Shown here: positions 1 through 35,031 of the stretch, piece after piece | Numbering within the stretch: the first letter of the stretch is position 1 | Layout of the letters: each line of letters begins with the position of its first letter | IMG/VR virus record: IMGVR_UViG_2627854098_000004 | Length of the DNA stretch: 51,192 bases | Reading direction: 5' to 3' (one strand) | Source of the DNA: a virus | Lineage: Duplodnaviria > Heunggongvirae > Uroviricota > Caudoviricetes | Notes under the pieces: model-generated | The model's input: only the letters and a program-made list of their open reading frames with translations | Database searches by the model: none | What the model was told of the DNA's origin: nothing | Program-made: the position numbers and the translations under genes

Positions 1-219
1 TTATGCAGCGTTCTGGCGTGAGTTTCGAATAGTCGTTTCAATCCATTCATCAATCTCACTTTCCACAAAAGCGACACACCTCGGTCCTATTTTTACCCTG
101 TCTGGAAAGTTTCCTTCCTTAATACGCTCATATAAGGTCGTACGACTGAATCCCACTCGATTTAAAACATCAGGAACGCGGATAAATCGTTTTACGCTGG
201 TTTCACTATTTTTTTTCAT
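1..219 (-). CDS. AlpA-family phage/island transcriptional regulator (DNA-binding excision-type regulator)
   Basis: ORF 1..291 on the - strand; internal ATG at 219-217 preceded by AGAGGA; helix-turn-helix-like segment RFIRVPDVLNRVGFSRTTLYERIKEGNFP typical of the AlpA family; lies outside the prophage boundary. Confidence 0.65.
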   Translation of the reverse strand: MKKNSETSVKRFIRVPDVLNRVGFSRTTLYERIKEGNFPDRVKIGPRCVAFVESEIDEWIETTIRNSRQNAA

Positions 220-435
220 TGTCTGTCCTCTTTTGTTGTACGGAATCTCTATGAGATTTCGTTTTTCTCTATGTTGTTTCGACGAGAACAATGATAGCGA
301 TTTTGCTTATGACAATTTAGGGACGTTCAAAGAAGTTTTTTTTGAAAAATTCGAAGGGGCACGGATGGAAAGATAACGGTTAACACTGGATGCGATCACG
401 TTCGCACGGAGCGAACGTAACCCTTTTTACTTGGC

Positions 436-1272
436 TTATTTTTTCTTATTCCTGTCGTCTTCTACATGCTTTTCAACAGGGGAGTCTTTCAAGTAGTTGT
501 TTTCCATCATGTAATCTTCAAGCGACTTCAGATAGCTCGCATCCGTCAGAAAAGCCATTGCTAACGGGTAATCTGTAGCCTTGAGCATTCCTTCATCACG
601 ATCGTTGTCGCTGTCCTCGTGAAGCAGCGAGGAAATCAGTGAAAGCGGGATTTTAATGCCGTTATCTTCTCCCCAGAAGATCAGGTCCATCATCGGGATA
701 AGACGATATTCAATAATTTTTCTGAACGTGCTTTTGCCAAAACGATACTCTCTTGGAACTGGAGACGTCATCTTAAGCTGCCTCTTCCATTGAGGGATCA
801 ACACTTTCAGATGTTCAATGATCTCTTCGGTTGATGCTTCTTCCAGATGAATATCGGCAGTAATACGTGAAAGATTATTAAGGGATGTCTCTTTCAGATA
901 CTCGGACAGAAATTCAGACTGGCTTAACCCAGAGAGTTCAGGCGTGGCTTCGGTTAATGCCAGCGTTTTCGCATAAAATTGCGCGTGGCTTCGTGTCGTA
1001 GGGTTTACTGCGTAGGTTCTGGCAAGCTCATGTCCAAGGGTCGCGGTATCACCACTGAAAAAGATTTCGCCTCGCAAAATTTTATAGCGGTAGTCATCCA
1101 GCAAAAGTCTGTTCAGGGTCGGTATGGTATTCCGGCTCAACAACATTCTGTAAGCCAAGATGCGCCGCTCAACCTCAACATAAAACTGCTGTAAGGTGAG
1201 TTTCTCTATCGCCTCATAGCGTTCAACATCAAACCATGCTTCCAGTGCTTTCCTGATTTCACTTCTTTTCAT
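436..1272 (-). CDS. hypothetical island-associated protein (279 aa)
   Basis: ORF 436..1329; start ATG at 1272-1270 preceded by GGAGGATGG; no motif I can assign; adjacent to the AlpA-like gene. Confidence 0.5.
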   Translation of the reverse strand: MKRSEIRKALEAWFDVERYEAIEKLTLQQFYVEVERRILAYRMLLSRNTIPTLNRLLLDDYRYKILRGEIFFSGDTATLGHELARTYAVNPTTRSHAQFYAKTLALTEATPELSGLSQSEFLSEYLKETSLNNLSRITADIHLEEASTEEIIEHLKVLIPQWKRQLKMTSPVPREYRFGKSTFRKIIEYRLIPMMDLIFWGEDNGIKIPLSLISSLLHEDSDNDRDEGMLKATDYPLAMAFLTDASYLKSLEDYMMENNYLKDSPVEKHVEDDRNKKK

Positions 1273-1550
1273 CCATCCTCCAACAATCCATTTCCTTTGA
1301 TATATCTTCACAGGATCCGTTTGGAACAATTGAAGTTCAACTGTTTTGTCATCAGAGACGGGGGAATGGCTAAGTTGTTGTTAAGAGTGTGAACTCGAGA
1401 GCATAAAAGTGGATGCCCGACGCGCGGCAAAATGGTAAAAAACAGCATCAGTAGTAAGAAAAATTGAGCGAGAGAAAGGAATTTTAATGCAGGGATTTAT
1501 GCATGACAAAATCAAAAATGCTTTGTAATTGATTGATTTTGTTGAATGAT

Positions 1551-1612
1551 TGGCGGAGAGAGGGGGATTTGAACCCCCGGTAGAGTTGCCCCTACTCCGG
1601 TTTTCGAGACCG
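1551..1612 (-). repeat. 3' 62-nt fragment of tRNA-Ser(CGA) (serU-like); candidate prophage attachment-site core, distal (attR-side) copy
   Basis: Reverse complement reads CGGTCTCGAAAACCGGAGTAGGGGCAACTCTACCGGGGGTTCAAATCCCCCTCTCTCCGCCA: anticodon loop (CGA), long variable arm, T-arm and acceptor/CCA of a class II Ser tRNA; the 5' part of the tRNA is absent (sequence diverges at 1613). Confidence 0.7.
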
Positions 1613-2470
1613 ATGATACAGAGTCGAAAAATCAAAGAGTTAAAAAATTTTCTTGGAATAAATGTCTTAAAATCGTGCACGAAAAATCAATAAATTACAT
1701 AACATTAAAGAAGAATATTCCAAGCCTTCATGAGGTCACCACCTGTTTTCTGGTGTCATTCAGACGTGATTTGCCCCAGATTGGGAAAGCAAGCTTTTTT
1801 TTCTCAGCTTATTCCGTTTTGCCTGTGTGTTGAATAATTCCACTGCAGTTATATAAAATCGGTAACGGCTAGAAATCATTCAATACTCGCACTATCGGAA
1901 GTTCACCAGTCAACCGCGGTACGTTCTTGTATACAAGGTGCCGCGGTTTCCTTAATAATTTTTAGCAGTACTGTGTGAATGATGAGCGCCCTAAATCCAT
2001 GCATGATGCGTAGTGCCTGTTGTGCATCTTTCCGCGTCTCTTTTTACTAGACCAAAACCAATGATGCTTGCAATACCATTCCCGCCAGGCTCACAGAACA
2101 AATATCCCTTATCATCGACGCATAAGCGACACTAATCAGCAAAACCTAGGATGTATTGCTCTTGCCGGCACCTCCGGGAAAAATGTTTACTGCGCAATAA
2201 ATGAAAATAGCTCATCAACGTGCCGAGAATTAGCTATGTCTTGTGAGAAAAGAAACATCAATGATGCGTACAGCCGCACGAATACTTCTTATATTTTACT
2301 GTTAAACCGATACTTTTGTATCCTAACGAATACTTGACAAGATTATCTCCATCTTGGTAGATAAACCTCAGAAGGTTTTTGACAGGTGGATTTCTGTTCA
2401 GAAGGTCAATAAAGCTCTTCTCTATCATTAGTCAAATGTACAACATGGCTGTCTAAATAACGGAGTACTC

Positions 2471-3250
2471 ATGAATTTTACGTTTACTGACTCTGGATAC
2501 ACTGAAACAAATAAAAACAATCCCCCAATCATATTCGTTCATGGATTTTTCATGAATAATGAAATGTTCAAATACCAGTTTGACGAACTAAAAGAAAAAC
2601 ATAGAGTTGTTTGCATTAATGTTCGGGGATTCGATGCTCTCTCCGAAAAAATTGAGCCATTCTCGCTCTATGACATCGTTGATGACATTTTAAACGTCGC
2701 AGACTCACTACAACTGGATAAGTTTATTTTAGGTGGAATGTCGATGGGCGGATATATATCATTACGATTTGCCCTGTCACATTCAGAACGTTTGTCAGGG
2801 CTAATCCTTATGGCAACTCAGGCAGAGCAGGATCCGCCAGAAATCGCGTCCAGTTACATGGAGTTATGTAATGGATGGCAAGACCCAATCATAAAGGAAA
2901 ATATAATCAACTCATTATTACCCGTTTTTTTCGGAAATGATATCTCTGAAGCAGAGACATGGAGACAGGTATGGCTAGGCCATAAACCTGAAAATATCAT
3001 AAAGGCCATGAATGCAATGCTGGAGCGCGACGACATTTCAGAAAGAATCCAGATAATCACAATCCCCACGCTGATTATTCATGGTGCCAACGATATGGGG
3101 ATACCATTAGAGAAAGCAATTCAAATGCACAAAATGATTGCGCATTCTAAGCTTGAAGTCATTCCCGACGCAAATCATGCTCTAAATATCACTCATGCAA
3201 AGGAAGTAAATACAGCGATAAAAAACTGGCTGCAAAACAATCATATATAA
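2471..3250 (+). CDS. alpha/beta-fold hydrolase (moron, att-proximal)
   Basis: 259-aa ORF with RBS GGAG upstream; nucleophile elbow GGMSMGG (G-x-S-x-G) and candidate acid and His residues near the C-terminus; AT-rich compared with the lambda-like genes. Confidence 0.75.
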   Translation: MNFTFTDSGYTETNKNNPPIIFVHGFFMNNEMFKYQFDELKEKHRVVCINVRGFDALSEKIEPFSLYDIVDDILNVADSLQLDKFILGGMSMGGYISLRFALSHSERLSGLILMATQAEQDPPEIASSYMELCNGWQDPIIKENIINSLLPVFFGNDISEAETWRQVWLGHKPENIIKAMNAMLERDDISERIQIITIPTLIIHGANDMGIPLEKAIQMHKMIAHSKLEVIPDANHALNITHAKEVNTAIKNWLQNNHI

Positions 3251-3287
3251 AATTAATTATAACACATATTAATTTCTTAATTATATT

Positions 3288-3313
3288 ACGCCCGTAAAAC
3301 TGTAGCGGGCGTA
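3288..3313. terminator. hairpin between convergent genes (possible bidirectional terminator)
   Basis: 8-bp stem TACGCCCG/CGGGCGTA with a 10-nt loop, in the gap between the hydrolase (+) and the membrane-protein gene (-); flanking runs are A/T-rich but not clean U-tracts. Confidence 0.35.
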
Positions 3314-3451
3314 TGTTGTCACTCTGGTAGTGCCAGCCTCTCAATATCAGGTGCAGTTGATGTATCAACACGGTTCAGCAACACCCGATACTTTTTCCAG
3401 GCTTCCAGCAACGGGGTTTCTTCCTCCGTTGCATATACAGCTCACCTTTTT

Positions 3452-29694: not shown

Positions 29695-30021
29695 TCAAGG
29701 ACGTGACGGCGTAAAGATAAATTGTCTCTTCACTCCCTGACAGGGGCGATTCTTTTCAAATCGCCATTTCGCCATGGCCTTCACCACTTCATCACGAAAC
29801 AAATTATGAGGCTCTGAGCGGAGAAAAACGATCCGTGTCACAGTCCCATCAGCACCAATATCGAACTTAACCTCAACCAGCCCCTTGATATAATTTGCTG
29901 CAGCATATTCCGGATATCGTGGATACACCGTCACTAATTGCCGGGGCTCATCAGCTTTTTGCTGCGAGCATCCCACTGCCAGGACAGATAACAGAAAAAG
30001 TAGTAAAAGGCGTCTTTTCAT
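29695..30021 (-). CDS. lipoprotein with a TonB C-terminal-like domain (108 aa)
   Basis: Start ATG 30021 with RBS AGGAA; lipobox LAVGC followed by Ser; PRYPEYAAANYIKGLVEVKFDIGADGTVTRIVFLRSEPHNLFRDEVVKAMAKWRF aligns with the E. coli TonB C-terminal domain. Confidence 0.7.
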   Translation of the reverse strand: MKRRLLLLFLLSVLAVGCSQQKADEPRQLVTVYPRYPEYAAANYIKGLVEVKFDIGADGTVTRIVFLRSEPHNLFRDEVVKAMAKWRFEKNRPCQGVKRQFIFTPSRP

Positions 30022-30501
30022 TTTTATTCCTACGGGTCTTATTCTGACAATATATCCTGTGTTCCAGACTGCCACATCACCACATCCTGTGCCATTATCT
30101 GACTCACATTACATACATCGCATCGGGATACAGTAGTAGCACTTTCTGTAATACAGCTTCCTGTTTCTTCCACCATCGCACCGGGATAAACCCGCGAATC
30201 ATTAACGCGGTAAAAACCCGGTGTGCATCGTTTTTAATTATTCCCGCACACTCACGCAGAAGGAATTCCCCGTCGGGCTACGGTCATGGTTAATGCGGGA
30301 ATACGGCGACGATACAGCGCAGCTAAAAGGGTAATGGACGGATAGACCGGTTTATTTCATTCCACAGGATTCTGAGTGTCCCCAACTTCCTCCAATAGTC
30401 TGAGCCCACCTGTGTAGTTTTAATTTTCATCAATCCATTTAACTATCGTTTAATTGTTGTCACATAGGATTCTGCCGTTTTTAACAATGCAGGATAATAA
30501 G

Positions 30502-30795
30502 ATGAAAAAAATGTTGTTTTCTGCCGCTCTGGCAATGCTTATTACAGGATGTGCTCAACAGACGTTTACTGTTGGAAACAAACCTACAGCAGTAACACCA
30601 AAGGAAACCATCACCCATCATTTCTTCGTTTCGGGAATTGGGCAGAAGAAAACTGTCGATGCAGCAAAAATTTGTGGTGGTGCAGAAAATGTTGTTAAAA
30701 CAGAAACCCAGCAAACATTCGTAAATGGATTGCTCGGTTTTATTACTTTAGGCATTTATACTCCGCTGGAAGCGCGTGTGTATTGCTCACAATAA
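30502..30795 (+). CDS. bor: Bor lipoprotein (serum-resistance family)
   Basis: Start MKKMLFSAALAMLITGCAQQ; near-identical to lambda Bor; opposite strand to the lysis genes as in lambda. Confidence 0.9.
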   Translation: MKKMLFSAALAMLITGCAQQTFTVGNKPTAVTPKETITHHFFVSGIGQKKTVDAAKICGGAENVVKTETQQTFVNGLLGFITLGIYTPLEARVYCSQ

Positions 30796-30826: not shown

Positions 30827-31300
30827 CTATCTGCACTGCTCATTAATATACTTCTGGGTTCCTTCCAGTTGTTTTTGCATAGTGATCAGCCTCTCTCTGA
30901 GGGTGAAATAATCCCGTTCAGCGGTGTCTGCCAGTCGGGGGGAGGCTGCATTATCCACGCCGGAGGCGGTGGTGGCTTCACGCACTGACTGACAGACTGC
31001 TTTGATGTGCAACCGACGACGACCAGCGGCAACATCATCACGCAGAGCATCATTTTCAGCTTTCGCATCAGCTAACTCCTTCGTGTATTTTGCATCGAGC
31101 GCAGCAACATCACGCTGACGCATCTGTATGTCAGTAATTACCGCGTTCGCCAGCGTCAGTTCTCTGGCATTTTTGTCGCGCTGGGCTTTGTAGGTAATGG
31201 CGTTATCACGGTAATGATTAACAGCCCATGACAGGCAGACGATGATGCAGATAACCAGAGCGGAGATAATCGCGGTTACTCTGTTCATTGCTGACCCCAC
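30827..31300 (-). CDS. Rz: i-spanin Rz
   Basis: 157 aa; N-terminal transmembrane segment then coiled-coil region; last gene of the lysis cassette. Confidence 0.85.
30886..31068 (-). CDS. Rz1: o-spanin Rz1 (embedded in Rz, +1 frame)
   Basis: 60 aa; lipobox VVGC; proline-rich; lies entirely within Rz. Confidence 0.8.
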
Positions 31301-31782
31301 AAACAGATTTCACGCTCAATCTCACGACGAGTCATGAGACCTTTCCATTGCTTACCGCCAGCATATGTCCAGCGACGTAGCTGATCACATGCGCCTTTGA
31401 TATCGCCCTGGTTTATTTTGCGAAGAAGCGTCGATGTTCTGAAATTGCCAGCACCCACGTTGTAAACGAATGAGTAAAGAGCGCCGCGCATTGTTTCCGG
31501 TATATCGACTTTGATGTACGGGTTAATTTGTCTGGCGACCGTGGCAAGGTCTTTATTCAGGAGGGCTTTGCATTCTGCTTTGGTATACGTTTTACCGAGC
31601 ATGATGTCTTTTCCTGTATGCCCGTGACATACAGTCCATACACCAACAATATCTTTGTATGGTATGTAGCTGACACCTTCCAGACCATCGTTACCACTTG
31701 GGCCAGTGATTAACACTGATGCTATAGCAATTGCTCCGCCACCAATAGCAGCAGCAACGGCTTTTCGTAATGATGGAGGCAT
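31285..31782 (-). CDS. R: SAR endolysin (T4-lysozyme-type, phage-21 R-like)
   Basis: 165 aa; Gly/Ala-rich N-terminal signal-anchor-release segment; catalytic E-x8-D-x5-T ([16 protein letters not shown]). Confidence 0.85.
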
Positions 31783-31997
31783 TATTCACCTCTCGCAGCC
31801 TTGCGCTTATCTTCTTTAATCTTGAAATAAAGGTTTGTCAGGTACGTCAGCAGGCCAAATACCAGGCTACCCAGCACACCTATTGCCGCCCACTGTGAGG
31901 GCGTGACTTTATCGAGCAACTGTAAAAACCAGTACCCGGCACTACCTGCTGAGGTACCATAGGCGACACCCGTTGTTAACTTATCCATGGATTTCAT
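31782..31997 (-). CDS. S: class II holin (pinholin, S21-like) with dual-start motif MKSM
   Basis: 71 aa; two transmembrane segments; Met1 and Met4 give antiholin/holin starts; ATGA-type overlap with R. Confidence 0.85.
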
Positions 31998-32135
31998 AAC
32001 CCCACCTCGCAGACAAAGCGGGTGTAAATTAAGGGGATACTACGTATCGCAATAAAGGCAGAAACGTAACAGATTCGGAGTCAGTGAATAACTCAGGTAT
32101 TGGGTTATCAGCTAATATCGAGACTCAAAAAATGG

Positions 32136-32159
32136 AAAAACCCGCTCGACGGCGGGTTT
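32136..32159 (-). terminator. hairpin plus U-run about 140 nt upstream of S
   Basis: On the - strand AAACCCGC-CGTCGA-GCGGGTTT followed by TTCCATTTTTTGAG. Confidence 0.4.
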
Positions 32160-32585
32160 AAGCTGTGTGACGAAGTAACCACTCTTAACAGCATAACCAA
32201 TTTTTTACGTACGTAAACTACTAAATGATATTTGTGAGAATGCCACCGAGTGTTCAAAACACCACCACAAATGCATAAGAAAACTTCAACAAATAACCAG
32301 TTAATAATTTCCGATGTTATTTTTAGTTTGTTTAAATTAAGCTAAAGAATTATAGAGCACTTATAAATAAGTGCCATTAATATAAATTAGCTAATAGATT
32401 TATTTTTGTTCAGACAAGAGCCATGAATAGGATTAGATAGAAAAGGTTCAGATAAAAATAGAGATCTACTTCACAAATTAAATGAGAAACTAAAACTTAC
32501 ATCTTGAAATAATCACATTGATTAGATGAATATTTATCGCGCAGTGACATCATTTTTTAATAATAGTTCAAAAAAAGGGCGTACA

Positions 32586-33668
32586 ATGAAAAAATTAACA
32601 GTGGCAATTTCTGCTGTAGCTGCATCAGTACTGATGGCGATGTCTGCTCAGGCAGCTGAAATTTATAATAAAGACAGTAACAAGCTGGATCTATACGGGA
32701 AAGTTAATGCCAAGCACTACTTCTCCTCTAATGATGCAGATGATGGTGATACTACTTATGCCCGTCTTGGCTTCAAAGGTGAAACCCAAATCAACGATCA
32801 ACTGACTGGTTTCGGTCAGTGGGAATATGAATTCAAAGGCAACCGTGCTGAATCTCAAGGTTCTTCCAAAGACAAAACCCGTCTTGCATTTGCAGGCCTG
32901 AAATTTGGTGATTACGGCTCAATCGATTACGGCCGTAACTACGGTGTAGCATACGACATCGGTGCGTGGACTGACGTTCTGCCAGAATTCGGTGGTGATA
33001 CCTGGACCCAAACAGATGTGTTCATGACTGGTCGCACTACTGGTGTTGCAACTTATCGTAACAACGACTTCTTTGGTCTGGTCGATGGCCTGAACTTTGC
33101 TGCTCAGTATCAGGGTAAAAATGACCGCACTGACGTAACTGAAGCCAATGGTGATGGTTTCGGTTTCTCCACTACTTATGAGTATGAAGGATTCGGCGTG
33201 GGTGCAACCTATGCTAAATCAGATCGCACTGACGGTCAGGTCGCCTATGGTAAGAGCAAATTCAATGCCTCCGGCAAAAATGCGGAAGTATGGGCTGCAG
33301 GCCTGAAATATGATGCGAACAATATCTATCTGGCTACCACATATTCTGAAACTCAGAATATGACCGTTTTTGGTAATAACCATATTGCAAACAAAGCACA
33401 AAACTTTGAAGCAGTAGCACAATATCAGTTTGACTTCGGTCTGCGTCCATCTGTTGCTTACCTTCAGTCAAAAGGTAAAGACCTTGGTGTTCATGGTGAC
33501 CGAGACTTAGTCAAGTATGTCGATGTCGGTGCTACTTACTACTTTAATAAAAACATGTCCACTTTTGTTGATTACAAAATCAACTTAATTGACGATAGTA
33601 AGTTTACCAAAACAGCTGGTATTGATACCGACGACATCGTCGCTGTAGGTCTGGTTTATCAGTTCTAA
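32586..33668 (+). CDS. phage-borne general porin (OmpC/OmpF/NmpC-Lc family)
   Basis: ORF 32526..33668; start ATG 32586 with RBS AAGGG; signal peptide ...AMSAQA then AEIYNKD, C-terminal F; between Q and S on the opposite strand, as for nmpC in DLP12. Confidence 0.9.
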
Positions 33669-33685
33669 TCTGACTTACGAAAAAG

Positions 33686-33719
33686 ATATGTTGCGGGAGG
33701 CTTTGCCTCCGCAACATAT
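33686..33719. terminator. long hairpin between porin and Q; candidate tR' on the - strand
   Basis: ATATGTTGCGGGAGGC-TTT-GCCTCCGCAACATAT; a U-run (CTTTTTC) follows only on the - strand. Confidence 0.4.
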
Positions 33720-33803
33720 AAGTGGAGCCCTCAAGCCACTTCCTTTAGAAGCACTACCTTGCTTCTTACTATATAAACCTTCTGTTATATATTACCCTTT
33801 ATT

Positions 33804-33832
33804 TTGGGGGCGTTTCCACGCCCCATTTTTAA
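33804..33832 (+). terminator. intrinsic terminator after the porin gene
   Basis: GGGGGCG-TTTCCA-CGCCCC followed by ATTTTTAAT on the + strand. Confidence 0.55.
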
Positions 33833-33856
33833 TAACTTTTAGTAAACAATTGCATA

Positions 33857-34240
33857 TCAATTAGAATTATTAGCAACGATATCCATATCTAACCGGATAT
33901 CTAATGCCATTAACATCCCTTCAATTATGCCCTCAGCCTTCTGTAACCTTTTCCCGATATAACCATCCGAGCAGCAATGCTTACTTGCCAGTGACATGAA
34001 TGTCATACCACATACATAATAATCTACTAATAAATCGTGTAAATCGCTGTTGTTCTTTTTCAGACGGGCCATGCACCCGCAAATGATCATCGCGTCATCG
34101 TCACAACATTGCGGGCGAGATTTTACTTTTGAAGGAATTAATCCCTTAAAACCGGCGGCAATGGACGACCAGGTCACATCTTCATGATTATTAGCCGCCC
34201 ACGCACCCCAACGCTCAAGAACCATCTGAATATCACGCAT
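33857..34240 (-). CDS. Q: late-gene antiterminator Q (phage 82/DLP12 QuuD type)
   Basis: ORF 33857..34255; start [11 protein letters not shown] at 34240 with GGAG upstream; Cys-rich zinc-binding region. Confidence 0.85.
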
Positions 34241-34325
34241 CAACTTACTCCACAAAAATCAGACCAGAACGCCAATTACAAGCAAAAATCAACAAAACAG
34301 TATTAGTTGATTGTTATCTCTGACT

Positions 34326-34448
34326 TCATACTCCTGTTCCTGTCAGGGTTTTGGCGTAATTCTTCAGTATTCGGTAATCGGTCAAAACAGAACCGAGGAA
34401 ACGATATAAGCGCAGACGCCCCCAGCGGTGGCGAAGAAGTTCTGCCAT
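34326..34448 (-). CDS. small ORF between rusA and Q (ylcG-like position, 40 aa)
   Basis: ATG 34448 to TGA 34326, below the ORF-track cutoff; no clear RBS; assigned by position only. Confidence 0.3.
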   Translation of the reverse strand: MAELLRHRWGRLRLYRFLGSVLTDYRILKNYAKTLTGTGV

Positions 34449-34462
34449 ATTAAACTCAAACA

Positions 34463-34825
34463 TCATTCATTCCCCATTTCGGTGATGGTCAGTTCCAGCC
34501 TCCCACCTTTGGTAACAGGCATCTTCACAACGCGGTAATCAACGACCTGAGCATCATCCAGCCAGAAACCTGCTTTAGTGAGTGCGTCAAAAGCGGCTTT
34601 TTGCAGATTATCCAGGTCACGGCGACGGCGATCCGGCATGTGGCACTCAATGCGGATTTTCACAGGCATAGCCAGGCCGATATCCAGCATTGCGTTTTTA
34701 ATGATTCGGGCGACGTTATCGCGGTATGCCTGCCCCTCTGCGCTGACGTGCGTGCGCCCGCGATTATGGCGGTAATAGCGATTATTGCTCGGAGGCCAGG
34801 GTAATGTGATGCTGTAGGTATTCAC
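34463..34825 (-). CDS. rusA: RusA Holliday-junction resolvase
   Basis: 120 aa; matches E. coli DLP12 RusA as I recall it; GTG start with GGGGG RBS. Confidence 0.9.
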
Positions 34826-34947
34826 GCCTTAATAACCCCCTCTTTCAGCCACATAACCTGTGTTCTCGCCATACCTTCCAGCGCGCATTCTTTTGCATAT
34901 GCAGCATCGACTTGCTTGGCATGCCCTTTACCGGCAATCTTCTGTAT
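34822..34947 (-). pseudogene. truncated remnant of a ybcO-like (DUF1364) gene
   Basis: Only the C-terminal part (...[24 protein letters not shown]) is open, with a TAG upstream; stop overlaps the rusA start. Confidence 0.3.
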
Positions 34948-35031
34948 GCGCTAAACCTAGATAGAATCCACTCTGTGCACATTGAAGCCCGCTCTATGCT
35001 TTCTTTCAGGTATTGAAGGGATTGAGATGGG

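Follow-up and report, generated by a model that had tools for sequence, protein, structure and literature searches.

The locus examined here is already known: an Lc/NmpC-type porin gene between the late antiterminator gene Q and the lysis genes is common in E. coli lambdoid prophages, and the porin belongs to a textbook type of lysogenic-conversion gene (PA-2 lc, DLP12 nmpC). In the K-12 cryptic prophage DLP12 (qsr'), the gene order is quuD - nmpC - essD - rrrD - rzpD - borD, with nmpC broken by IS5 after codon 346. The K-12 nmpC promoter lies within 199 bp of the ATG, is activated by CRP, and has been found active and CRP-dependent by 5' RACE and promoter deletion (PMC11677980). For PA-2, whose lysogens make the Lc or "protein 2" porin, the record (J02580) is a 2.8-kb fragment that annotates CRP sites upstream of lc; Q, S, and the late promoter are not recognised in its annotation.

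The window, meaning the whole 51,192-nt stretch of DNA that was analysed, holds a lambdoid prophage in its integrated form. Its structural genes resemble those of phage 21, and its Q-S-R-Rz region, on the - strand, is of the DLP12 type. Gene order and strands are those of DLP12, with identities of 96% for Q (against K-12 QuuD), 91% for the porin, ~94% for both spacers, and 100% for the block from the late promoter (pR') to its terminator. The two differ in that the window's porin copy is intact, that DLP12 lacks 17 bp upstream of S, and that the porins diverge in four short segments. PA-2 resembles the window on both flanks of lc: the Q-side spacer is the same, the CRP sites annotated in its record and the pR' block are shared, and R/Rz follow downstream. 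Phage ev017 and many E. coli prophages are 100% identical to the window across a 3.1-kb region, at least 80% of which is contained in 2310 of 5426 complete E. coli genomes (~43%), where the matching loci are annotated quuD / porin / essD / rrrD / rzpD.

The porin gene and its cassette

The porin gene (+) sits antisense between Q (33857-34240, -) and the holin gene S (31782-31997, -). Q is a 127-aa antiterminator of the QuuD type (PF06530, E 6.7e-54) that distantly matches the solved Q21 structure, and S, the first late gene, encodes a holin of the phage 21 (S21) type (PF04971, E 2e-35). Beyond S lie an RrrD-type endolysin gene, R (31285-31782, -; PF00959, E 1.3e-45), and the spanin gene Rz (30827-31300, -; PF03245, E 1.7e-53), in which the ORF list places an embedded Rz1-like lipoprotein ORF (30886-31068).

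An earlier note on this DNA had described a complete porin gene antisense between Q and S, and the intact ORF flanked by a PF06530 Q and a PF04971 S bears this out. The ORF spans 32526-33668, and its likely start, the ATG at 32586, yields a general porin precursor of 360 aa (32586-33668, +). Pfam Porin_1 covers the protein end to end (1-337 of 337, E 1.9e-151), the signal peptide (32586-32654) is a 23-aa leader followed by AEIYNK, and the C-terminus, VGLVYQF, ends on an aromatic residue. The best solved-structure matches are OmpC/OmpK36/PhoE/OmpF, and identity is 91% to both PA-2 Lc (331/365) and K-12 NmpC (316/346). Judged by its full-length domain, signal peptide, C-terminal aromatic residue, 91% identity, and antisense position between Q and S, the product is an Lc/NmpC prophage porin.

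Such a gene could in principle be a decaying passenger without a role, in which case the layout would be only a recombination scar and the hairpins incidental. Interruption of the porin gene by IS5 in both K-12 and the 434B hybrid phage, together with IS1 in the region in some genomes, would suit this idea. We nonetheless consider it highly improbable. The ORF in the window is intact, with its full-length domain and signal peptide; 100% identical copies of the porin occur in many unrelated isolates, and the region is found in about 43% of complete E. coli genomes; the homologous K-12 promoter is active; and the differences from Lc and NmpC are concentrated in a few short segments, unlike the scatter of a pseudogene.

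Porin expression in lysogens, put forward as plausible in the earlier note, is supported by the activity and CRP dependence of the homologous K-12 nmpC promoter (PMC11677980) and by the CRP sites annotated in the PA-2 record. Part of the porin promoter region is a CRP-site homologue (32458-32478, +; TGTGA-N6-TCTCT on the late strand) whose sequence is identical to PA-2, where the matching misc_binding feature stands at 1434-1454 (L004). At the far end of the gene, the terminator scan and folding place an intrinsic terminator at 33807-33834 (+), as had been proposed for the porin: a 7-bp GC stem, GGGGCGT-TTCC-ACGCCCC, runs into the T-run ATTTTTAATA / AUUUUUAAUA. The stem is kept in K-12 and the loop differs. 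This hairpin would end the porin mRNA, and the porin would form an autonomous, prophage-expressed cassette with a CRP-dependent promoter and a terminator of its own.

The edges of the cassette are visible as breaks in homology with 933W and VT2-Sakai, which ends at ~33881 and restarts at ~32220. Residues 1-120 of Q are 81-84% identical to Q of 933W, VT2-Sakai, and other Stx phages (76% over the whole alignment with 933W Q). The C-terminal tails of the window, 933W, and ev066 proteins then part ways exactly at codon 120 (DNA junction ~33881), marking a recombination junction between Q and the downstream DNA. The porin cargo cassette, or moron, extends over 32221-33880, from Q codon 120 to the late promoter, and comprises a 7-codon Q tail, two hairpins, the porin gene, and a ~365-bp AT-rich regulatory region; GC content drops to 25-31% at 32150-32600. 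Within it, the 188-bp spacer between Q and the porin (33669-33856) was found only in 36 porin-bearing phage records and so appears to travel with the cargo and not with Q. This spacer shares no homology with pR' regions, and the terminator/promoter scan returned no promoter-like site on its late strand (33856-33690).

The spacer does hold a strong 34-nt hairpin (33686-33719, -), placed 138-171 nt past the Q stop. Its folding energy is ~-27 to -28 kcal/mol, with z scores of -4.1 on the + strand and -4.7 on the - strand, and a U-run (CUUUUUCG) is present on the - strand only. No homologue was found in 933W, SfII, or ev066. Scanned against Rfam at a permissive threshold, 31000-35000 gave only a chance match, to this hairpin, and no known RNA family; the accessible part of an E. 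coli 3' end mapping supplement (PMC7815308) contains no entry for the locus. The label "tR'-like", previously attached to this hairpin, is not appropriate: the surrounding spacer is without pR' homology, and the homologue of tR' is found at 32138-32159 instead. More likely, the hairpin terminates transcripts leaving the Q gene, and it would in this way shield the porin from antisense read-through in lysogens.

Homologues of the late promoter and first terminator

A homologue of the annotated pR' of 933W and VT2-Sakai is located past the porin, just before S (32190-32217, -). It consists of a -35 hexamer, TTTACG (32217-32212), a 16-bp spacer, and a -10 hexamer, TATGCT (32195-32190). Phage 82 carries its Q-binding element in the interval from -35 to -10 (PMC4914094). 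The corresponding spacer in the window holds the conserved CGTAAAAA, a candidate Q-binding element whose core, CG..CG.AAAAA, is invariant in six sequences. Next comes an invariant start-region block, TAAGAGTGGTTAC (32175-32187, -), with a predicted start at ~32184. This block has a single exact copy in the window and occurs once each in K-12, PA-2, 434B, SfII, 933W, and VT2-Sakai. One of the CRP sites annotated in PA-2 overlaps the pR' start region as read here.

The terminator scan places a tR' homologue at 32128-32159 (-); 933W and VT2-Sakai have its counterpart annotated as the first terminator downstream of pR'. Its hairpin (32159-32138) reads AAACCCGCC-GUCGAG-CGGGUUU, followed by the U-run UUUUUCCAUUUUUU / UUCCAUUUUUU; the stem is shared with 933W/VT2-Sakai and the loop is different. 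This agrees with the terminator-like - strand hairpin proposed earlier at 32136-32159, and indeed all three hairpins named in the earlier note exist, at coordinates correct to within a few bases (terminator scan, folding). It is the sole intrinsic-terminator-like site that the scan returned between pR' and S, with no second terminator following it before S.

Overall, the alignment of 32220-32136 with 933W and VT2-Sakai covers their annotated pR' / qut / first terminator. The -10 core, spacer core, start block, and terminator stem are common to the window, DLP12, PA-2, SfII, 933W, and VT2-Sakai; the -35 hexamer is kept in all of these except SfII. The promoter is 100% identical to those of K-12 DLP12 and PA-2, and PA-2 has one mismatch, in the terminator stem. 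The -10-like pause element, which in phage 82 is a good TATAAT match followed by GCC (PMC5001585), is recognisable in 933W (TACATTGCC). It is degenerate in the window, DLP12, and PA-2 (TACTTCGTC) and in SfII (TACTTCGCC); in all of these the final position of the hexamer is not T. Taken as a unit of the 82/933W type, the region has a PF06530 Q in the same phage, a pR'-homologous sigma-70 promoter, and a predicted terminator before the first late gene. A further candidate for pR', ATGGCA-17-TATAAT at 32377-32349, was rejected, as its -35 is not kept in K-12 and no K-12 start site is found there.

The promoter is not adjacent to Q. From the Q stop at 33857 to the -35 at 32217 is 1.64 kb, including the porin, and DLP12, PA-2, and SfII are alike in this separation. 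Because the pR' homologue lies between the porin start and S, we regard the porin cassette as cargo whose insertion separated Q from the promoter it targets. The late promoter thus appears on the lysis side of the porin, and our preferred reading, with a probability of roughly 0.78, is that late transcripts start near 32184 and probably do not run antisense through the porin.

Under this reading, Q would be made from the early rightward transcript and would act in trans, ~1.6 kb away, at an 82/933W-type late promoter (32217-32190). RNA polymerase would start at ~32184 and, without Q, would stop at the hairpin at 32159-32128; with Q, it would carry on past the hairpin to transcribe S, R, Rz, and the structural genes. 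Transcription of the porin and of the late operon would diverge, and Q-modified transcripts would not traverse the porin ORF. Unmodified transcripts leaving Q would be stopped by the - strand hairpin at 33719-33686, and N-modified early transcripts could presumably still cross the porin during lytic growth. By analogy with lambda biology, only early rightward transcripts reading through past Q would be expected to cross the porin antisense.

Mapped start sites and competing promoter positions

Start sites mapped in relatives bear on this prediction. The K-12 Cappable-seq data used here (+ strand start sites only) contain a late-strand start at U00096.2 576452, the G/A of TAAGAG, 6-7 nt after TATGCT. 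The surrounding sequence is identical in the window; the start is mapped in K-12 and predicted at ~32184 in the window. The K-12 start is weak (score 1.7, near the calling threshold), and the chance of a start site falling within +/-1 nt is ~0.5%, at about one called site per 570 nt per strand. After the late-strand start at 573406, inside quuD, the same data list none up to 575093. In Sakai, the pR' start was mapped by dRNA-seq 258 nt before tR', and the full pR' transcript passes the first hairpin and ends at a second terminator 258 nt away (PMC7547250). The Sakai start is the base homologous to the window's predicted start, to within +/-1. Since the Sakai transcript passes the first hairpin, the structure homologous to 32159-32138 is not a complete stop in that phage.

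The earlier note had held that Q-antiterminated late transcripts must cross the porin antisense before reaching S. This is not supported by the position of the pR', start, and first-terminator homologues at 32217-32128 (-), nor by the K-12 data, in which a start is mapped at the predicted base and none is found on the late strand from quuD to the nmpC 3' end. Shutdown of the porin by convergent late transcription is likewise not supported, the pR' homologue being downstream of the porin in the late direction. In the model behind the claim, the late promoter would lie right after Q, with 33719-33686 as tR', and Q-modified polymerase would cross both the porin and 32159-32138, shutting the porin off on induction. 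The late promoter does adjoin Q in lambda, 933W, and phage 82, and the strong - strand hairpin with its U-run is suitably placed after the Q stop. A K-12 late-strand start also lies inside quuD (U00096.2 573406, ~34014 in the window), beside a promoter-like TTTACA-16-TATTAT at 34043-34016. We judge this arrangement very unlikely all the same: the late strand at 33856-33690 offers no promoter-like site, no K-12 start is mapped in the stretch from quuD to the nmpC 3' end, the spacer is restricted to porin-bearing phages and unrelated to pR', and the homologue of the pR' mapped in related phages lies past the porin.

Phage ev066 provides evidence against our preferred reading. Its Q is 84-87% identical to that of the window over aa 1-120, yet the conserved pR' block was sought in ev066 and not found, indicating that Q type does not strictly predict promoter type. 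Moreover, ev066 may have a promoter and terminator pair right after its similar Q, ahead of an antisense cargo gene, as the adjacent-promoter arrangement would have it.

The Q-responsive promoter of DLP12 has reportedly been placed instead at an RpoE-type site near 32537 (Rueggeberg 2013 and 2015). Two late-strand start sites mapped in K-12 lie here, head-to-head with the porin promoter (32537-32554, -), in sequence that is identical in the window; identity to K-12 extends from 32578 downward. One, at ~32554, is a strong sigma-70-type start (K-12 Cappable-seq U00096.2 576081, score 90). The other, at ~32537, is the +1 of the RpoE-type essDp, with -35 GAACT (32568-32564) and -10 TCACT (32547-32543). 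Its position was worked out from the primers and the "-121 to +650" amplicon in PMC7918800, a paper citing the original work.

If Q acted at essDp, transcription would begin 49 nt upstream of the porin ATG, reading away from it, and would pass the 32159-32128 terminator after a ~540-nt leader. PMC7918800 cites the 2013 and 2015 Rueggeberg studies for a DLP12 lysis operon under a Q-type antiterminator and RpoE, and its amplicon puts the essDp +1 at L002 4875, behind a GAACT-N16-TCACT that is identical in the window; 17 nt further upstream, K-12 has a very strong start (score 90). Known Q proteins of this family, on the other hand, load at sigma-70-dependent pauses beside a Q-binding element within pR' (PMC4914094, PMC5001585), and the 82/933W-type element is found at 32217-32175, not at 32570-32530. 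We therefore hold action of Q at essDp to be unlikely. Late transcripts from essDp would in any case also stay off the porin ORF and would not rescue the crossing claim.

No late-strand promoter in the homologous K-12 locus is stronger than the one at ~32554, which neighbours the RpoE-type site. A more speculative combined reading, for which we hold out little expectation, is that Q and its promoter are routinely split by cargo in this lineage and that transcription from ~32554 yields a non-coding RNA of ~425 nt, with its 3' end at the tR' hairpin. This RNA could extend over the porin 5' leader and connect expression of the porin with envelope stress and with the lysis cassette, and it might act in trans in the manner of StxS, the terminated pR' transcript of Stx phages. 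A StxS-like small RNA was considered and rejected; the StxS part of the Stx transcript falls beyond the homologous region.

Architecture and comparison with known systems

The useful correction offered by our preferred reading, with late transcripts starting near 32184, is one of architecture: in this lineage, cargo would be inserted between Q and its promoter, outside the late operon. Terminators on both sides of the cargo would leave prophage-expressed cargo and lethal lysis genes transcriptionally insulated from each other. This is relevant to annotating late promoters by proximity to Q, to engineering these prophages, and to foreseeing which cargo genes, like stx, would be switched on together with the late operon.

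The late control module of 933W and VT2-Sakai has a Q of the same family, and its -35, spacer core, -10, start block, and first terminator hairpin are homologous to those of the window. Its promoter overlaps the 3' end of Q, whereas that of the window is 1.64 kb away with the porin cassette between, and its Q tail is 24 aa as compared to 7 aa. Relative to the 933W/VT2-Sakai module, the window has a degenerate pause element and lacks a second terminator and a StxS-like 3' segment. Stx phage cargo (tRNAs, stx) lies downstream of pR', in sense orientation. The likeness to the phage 82 module rests on 933W, VT2-Sakai, and verbal descriptions of phage 82.

A gene with the relationship to late transcription that the earlier note assumed for the porin is lambda bor, a prophage-expressed outer-membrane lipoprotein gene on the strand opposite to the late genes (Bor homologue at 30502-30795 in the window). 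It differs from the porin in lying inside the late transcription unit, downstream of Rz, where late transcripts do cross it antisense. Shigella phage SfII differs from the window in its cargo, which consists of two unrelated hypothetical ORFs, in its Q (43% identical), and in its holin and endolysin types. It nonetheless shows the layout described here: a related Q, 15 nt, two antisense ORFs, and then a pR'-terminator block directly before S.

Gene layout around the porin

The late genes of the window lie on the - strand: Q (33857-34240, Pfam PF06530), the phage 21-type holin S (31782-31997), the endolysin R (31285-31782) and Rz with an embedded Rz1 (30827-31300). The porin ORF (32526-33668, +) has its likely start at ATG 32586, giving a 360-aa protein with a classical signal peptide, end-to-end coverage of Porin_1 (E 1.9e-151) and a C-terminal YQF. 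On the porin side, a + strand hairpin at 33807-33824 is followed by AUUUUUAAUA (terminator unit 33807-33834). A stable hairpin at 33686-33719 (about -27 kcal/mol and z -4.1 on the + strand, -28 and -4.7 on the - strand) has a U-run on the - strand only, and a - strand hairpin upstream of S (32159-32138) is followed by UUUUUCCAUUUUUU. All three hairpins named in the earlier note are present, and its description of a porin gene with its own terminator, antisense between Q and S, is borne out by the ORF, the Porin_1 match and the + strand hairpin. The remaining window is an integrated prophage, with phage 21-like structural genes at low coordinates and replication, recombination and integrase genes at high coordinates. 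The first 3.4 kb (1-3375) are uncovered by the best phage matches and could represent flanking host DNA or a variable tail-fibre end.

The porin feature is already known from nmpC of DLP12 and lc of phage PA-2. Escherichia phage ev017, like prophages in many E. coli isolates, matches the 3.1-kb Rz-Q region with 100% identity; of 5426 complete E. coli genomes, 2310 have at least 80% of this region, with the annotation quuD / porin / essD / rrrD / rzpD. DLP12 of K-12 has exactly the same order and strands (quuD +, nmpC -, essD +), with nmpC split by IS5 and both intergenic spacers ~94% identical to the window, and lc is flanked in the same way in the PA-2 GenBank fragment. Lc and NmpC each share 91% identity with the porin; nearly all differences fall in four short segments (~181-186, 218-232, 263-267 and 336-350), which include two small indels, and the rest is almost identical. 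From sequence, this clustering suggests diversified surface-exposed loops.

Probable position of the late promoter

The earlier note took the late promoter to lie directly after Q, on the lambda pattern; four sets of findings point elsewhere. Residues 1-120 of Q are 81-84% identical to Q of 933W, VT2-Sakai and many other Stx phages, and all copies part abruptly after codon 120. With the porin-S spacer as query, 32220-32136 (-) matches Stx phages at the annotated late promoter, qut and first terminator, a position that in 933W and VT2-Sakai overlaps the end of the Q gene. In a six-way alignment (window, DLP12, PA-2, SfII, 933W, VT2-Sakai), the -35 TTTACG is conserved in all sequences except SfII (5/6), and the spacer core CG..CG.AAAAA, the -10 TAT..T and the terminator stem CCCGCC/GCGGG are kept. 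The start-region block TAAGAGTGGTTAC is invariant and occurs as a single copy in the window and in each relative. By alignment, the pR' homologue has its -35 at 32217-32212, its -10 at 32195-32190 and a predicted start at ~32184 (all -), with the tR' homologue at 32159-32128 (-); the tR' label previously given to 33686-33719 does not stand.

In O157 Sakai, Term-seq puts a 3' end at tR', 258 nt downstream of the pR' start given by dRNA-seq (PMC7547250); on the VT2-Sakai record this start is the base homologous to 32184, +/-1. K-12 start sites were taken from a Cappable-seq list (PMC4782308 supplement, U00096.2 coordinates). A late-strand start at 576452 falls on the G/A of TAAGAG, 6-7 nt past TATGCT, in sequence identical in the window, with a weak signal (score 1.7). 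Between U00096.2 and U00096.3 we take the shift to be 776-777 nt, from lacZ coordinates, in agreement with older quoted coordinates. The K-12 data show no late-strand start from 573406 (inside quuD) to 575093 (inside nmpC), and hence none in the quuD-nmpC spacer. The corresponding spacer of the window (33669-33856) lacks promoter-like sites on the late strand and is limited to the 36 phage records that also have the porin.

Several further features were seen in these regions. The start inside quuD (U00096.2 573406, score 9.3; ~window 34014, -), ~157 nt before the Q stop, adjoins a promoter-like TTTACA-16-TATTAT (34043-34016), and its transcripts would run to the 33719-33686 hairpin. Antisense starts within the nmpC coding region lie at U00096.2 575093 (score 16.8), just past the IS5 end, and 575453 (score 2.8), or ~3870 and ~4230 of the K-12 DLP12 region (L002), roughly window 33540 and 33180 (-). 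From the -35 hexamer onward, DLP12 differs from the window by one mismatch up to a 17-bp indel (~32033-32049) in the leader that separates the tR' hairpin from S. The second 'CRP site' of the PA-2 record (L004 1730-1750; window 32163-32183, -) overlaps the conserved pR' start region AGTGGTTACTTCGTCACACAG, and late control is a likelier reason for its conservation than CRP.

A -10-like pause element is described for phage 82 (PMC5001585); it is recognisable in 933W (TACATTGCC) and degenerate in the window (TACTTCGTC). Sakai transcripts read through the first hairpin to a second terminator, where they end (PMC7547250), and a terminator scan of the window found no second terminator of this kind. 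Work on DLP12 reportedly describes a Q- and RpoE-responsive promoter, essDp, at a site other than the pR' homologue, and Q might, less probably, act at this RpoE-type site instead. Placed by way of the primers in PMC7918800, its +1 maps to ~32537 (-; L002 4875), 49 nt upstream of the porin ATG and directed away from the porin. It lies 17 nt downstream of a very strong K-12 late-strand start (score 90; ~window 32554, L002 4858), itself 33 nt upstream of the nmpC ATG. Both starts are head-to-head with the porin promoter, in sequence conserved in the window; RNA from ~32554/~32537 would end at the 32159-32128 hairpin after roughly 400-425 nt, with no convincing ORF. Use of essDp by Q would likewise leave the porin ORF uncrossed by late transcripts.

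The porin as probable cargo and its transcription

Most likely, a porin cassette (~32221-33880) is inserted cargo that separates Q codon 120 from the late promoter; besides the porin gene, it includes a Q tail of 7 codons, two hairpins and a regulatory region of 25-31% GC. Q would act in trans at a promoter 1.64 kb off: in its absence polymerase from ~32184 would halt at 32159-32128, and Q-modified polymerase would proceed to S-R-Rz and beyond. The - strand hairpin 33719-33686 probably serves to halt unmodified transcripts out of Q, including those from the quuD-internal start of K-12 (~34014); the + strand hairpin 33807-33834 is the porin terminator. A start at ~32184 would make the porin and the late operon divergent, so that Q-modified transcripts would not have to run through the porin ORF. 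Since the pR' homologue lies past the porin, the obligatory antisense crossing proposed earlier is not upheld, and the suggested porin shutdown by convergent late transcription falls with this divergent arrangement. By analogy with lambda, N-modified early transcripts could still cross the porin antisense in lytic growth.

The antisense crossing envisaged for the porin holds for the Bor homologue (30502-30795, +; Bor-family lipoprotein, PF06291, E 1.1e-30). Located just past Rz on the opposite strand, like bor in lambda and borD in DLP12, it is within the late transcription unit, as is lambda bor, whereas the porin is outside; late transcripts must therefore cross it antisense. An ORF at 29695-30075 (-), with a lipoprotein-like leader, bears the label TonB-family protein in the ev017 annotation.

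In the PA-2 literature, the porin reportedly alters the phage sensitivity of lysogens. The K-12 porin promoter is active by 5' RACE and promoter deletion, and is reported to be activated by CRP and repressed by OmpR, IHF and MprA (PMC11677980). With this homologous promoter active and the CRP site annotated for PA-2 conserved at 32458-32478, porin expression in lysogens remains plausible, as the earlier note had it.

Q and probable late promoters in other phages

In Shigella phage SfII (NC_021857, 35266-37481), 15 nt separate Q from two antisense hypothetical ORFs, SfII_49 and SfII_50 (340 aa), and an 82/933W-type promoter-terminator block stands directly before S; judged by sequence, Q and pR' are split here as in the window, with other cargo. 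Phage ev066 (LR597653, 41000-44700) has a Q 84-87% identical over aa 1-120, then a + strand terminator, an antisense lipocalin (Blc) gene, three sense ORFs and S. A search of ev066 for the TAAGAGTGGTTAC block found none; a different promoter-like sequence and terminator lie ~85 nt before S, and the Q core seems here to go with another late promoter. The phage 434 isolate 434B (OL657227, 41277-44868) has the DLP12 Q-nmpC::IS5-S region, annotated as 'region of 434 nonhomology'. This 434 derivative forms plaques, and evidently tolerates an additional 1.2-kb IS5 between its Q and late promoter.
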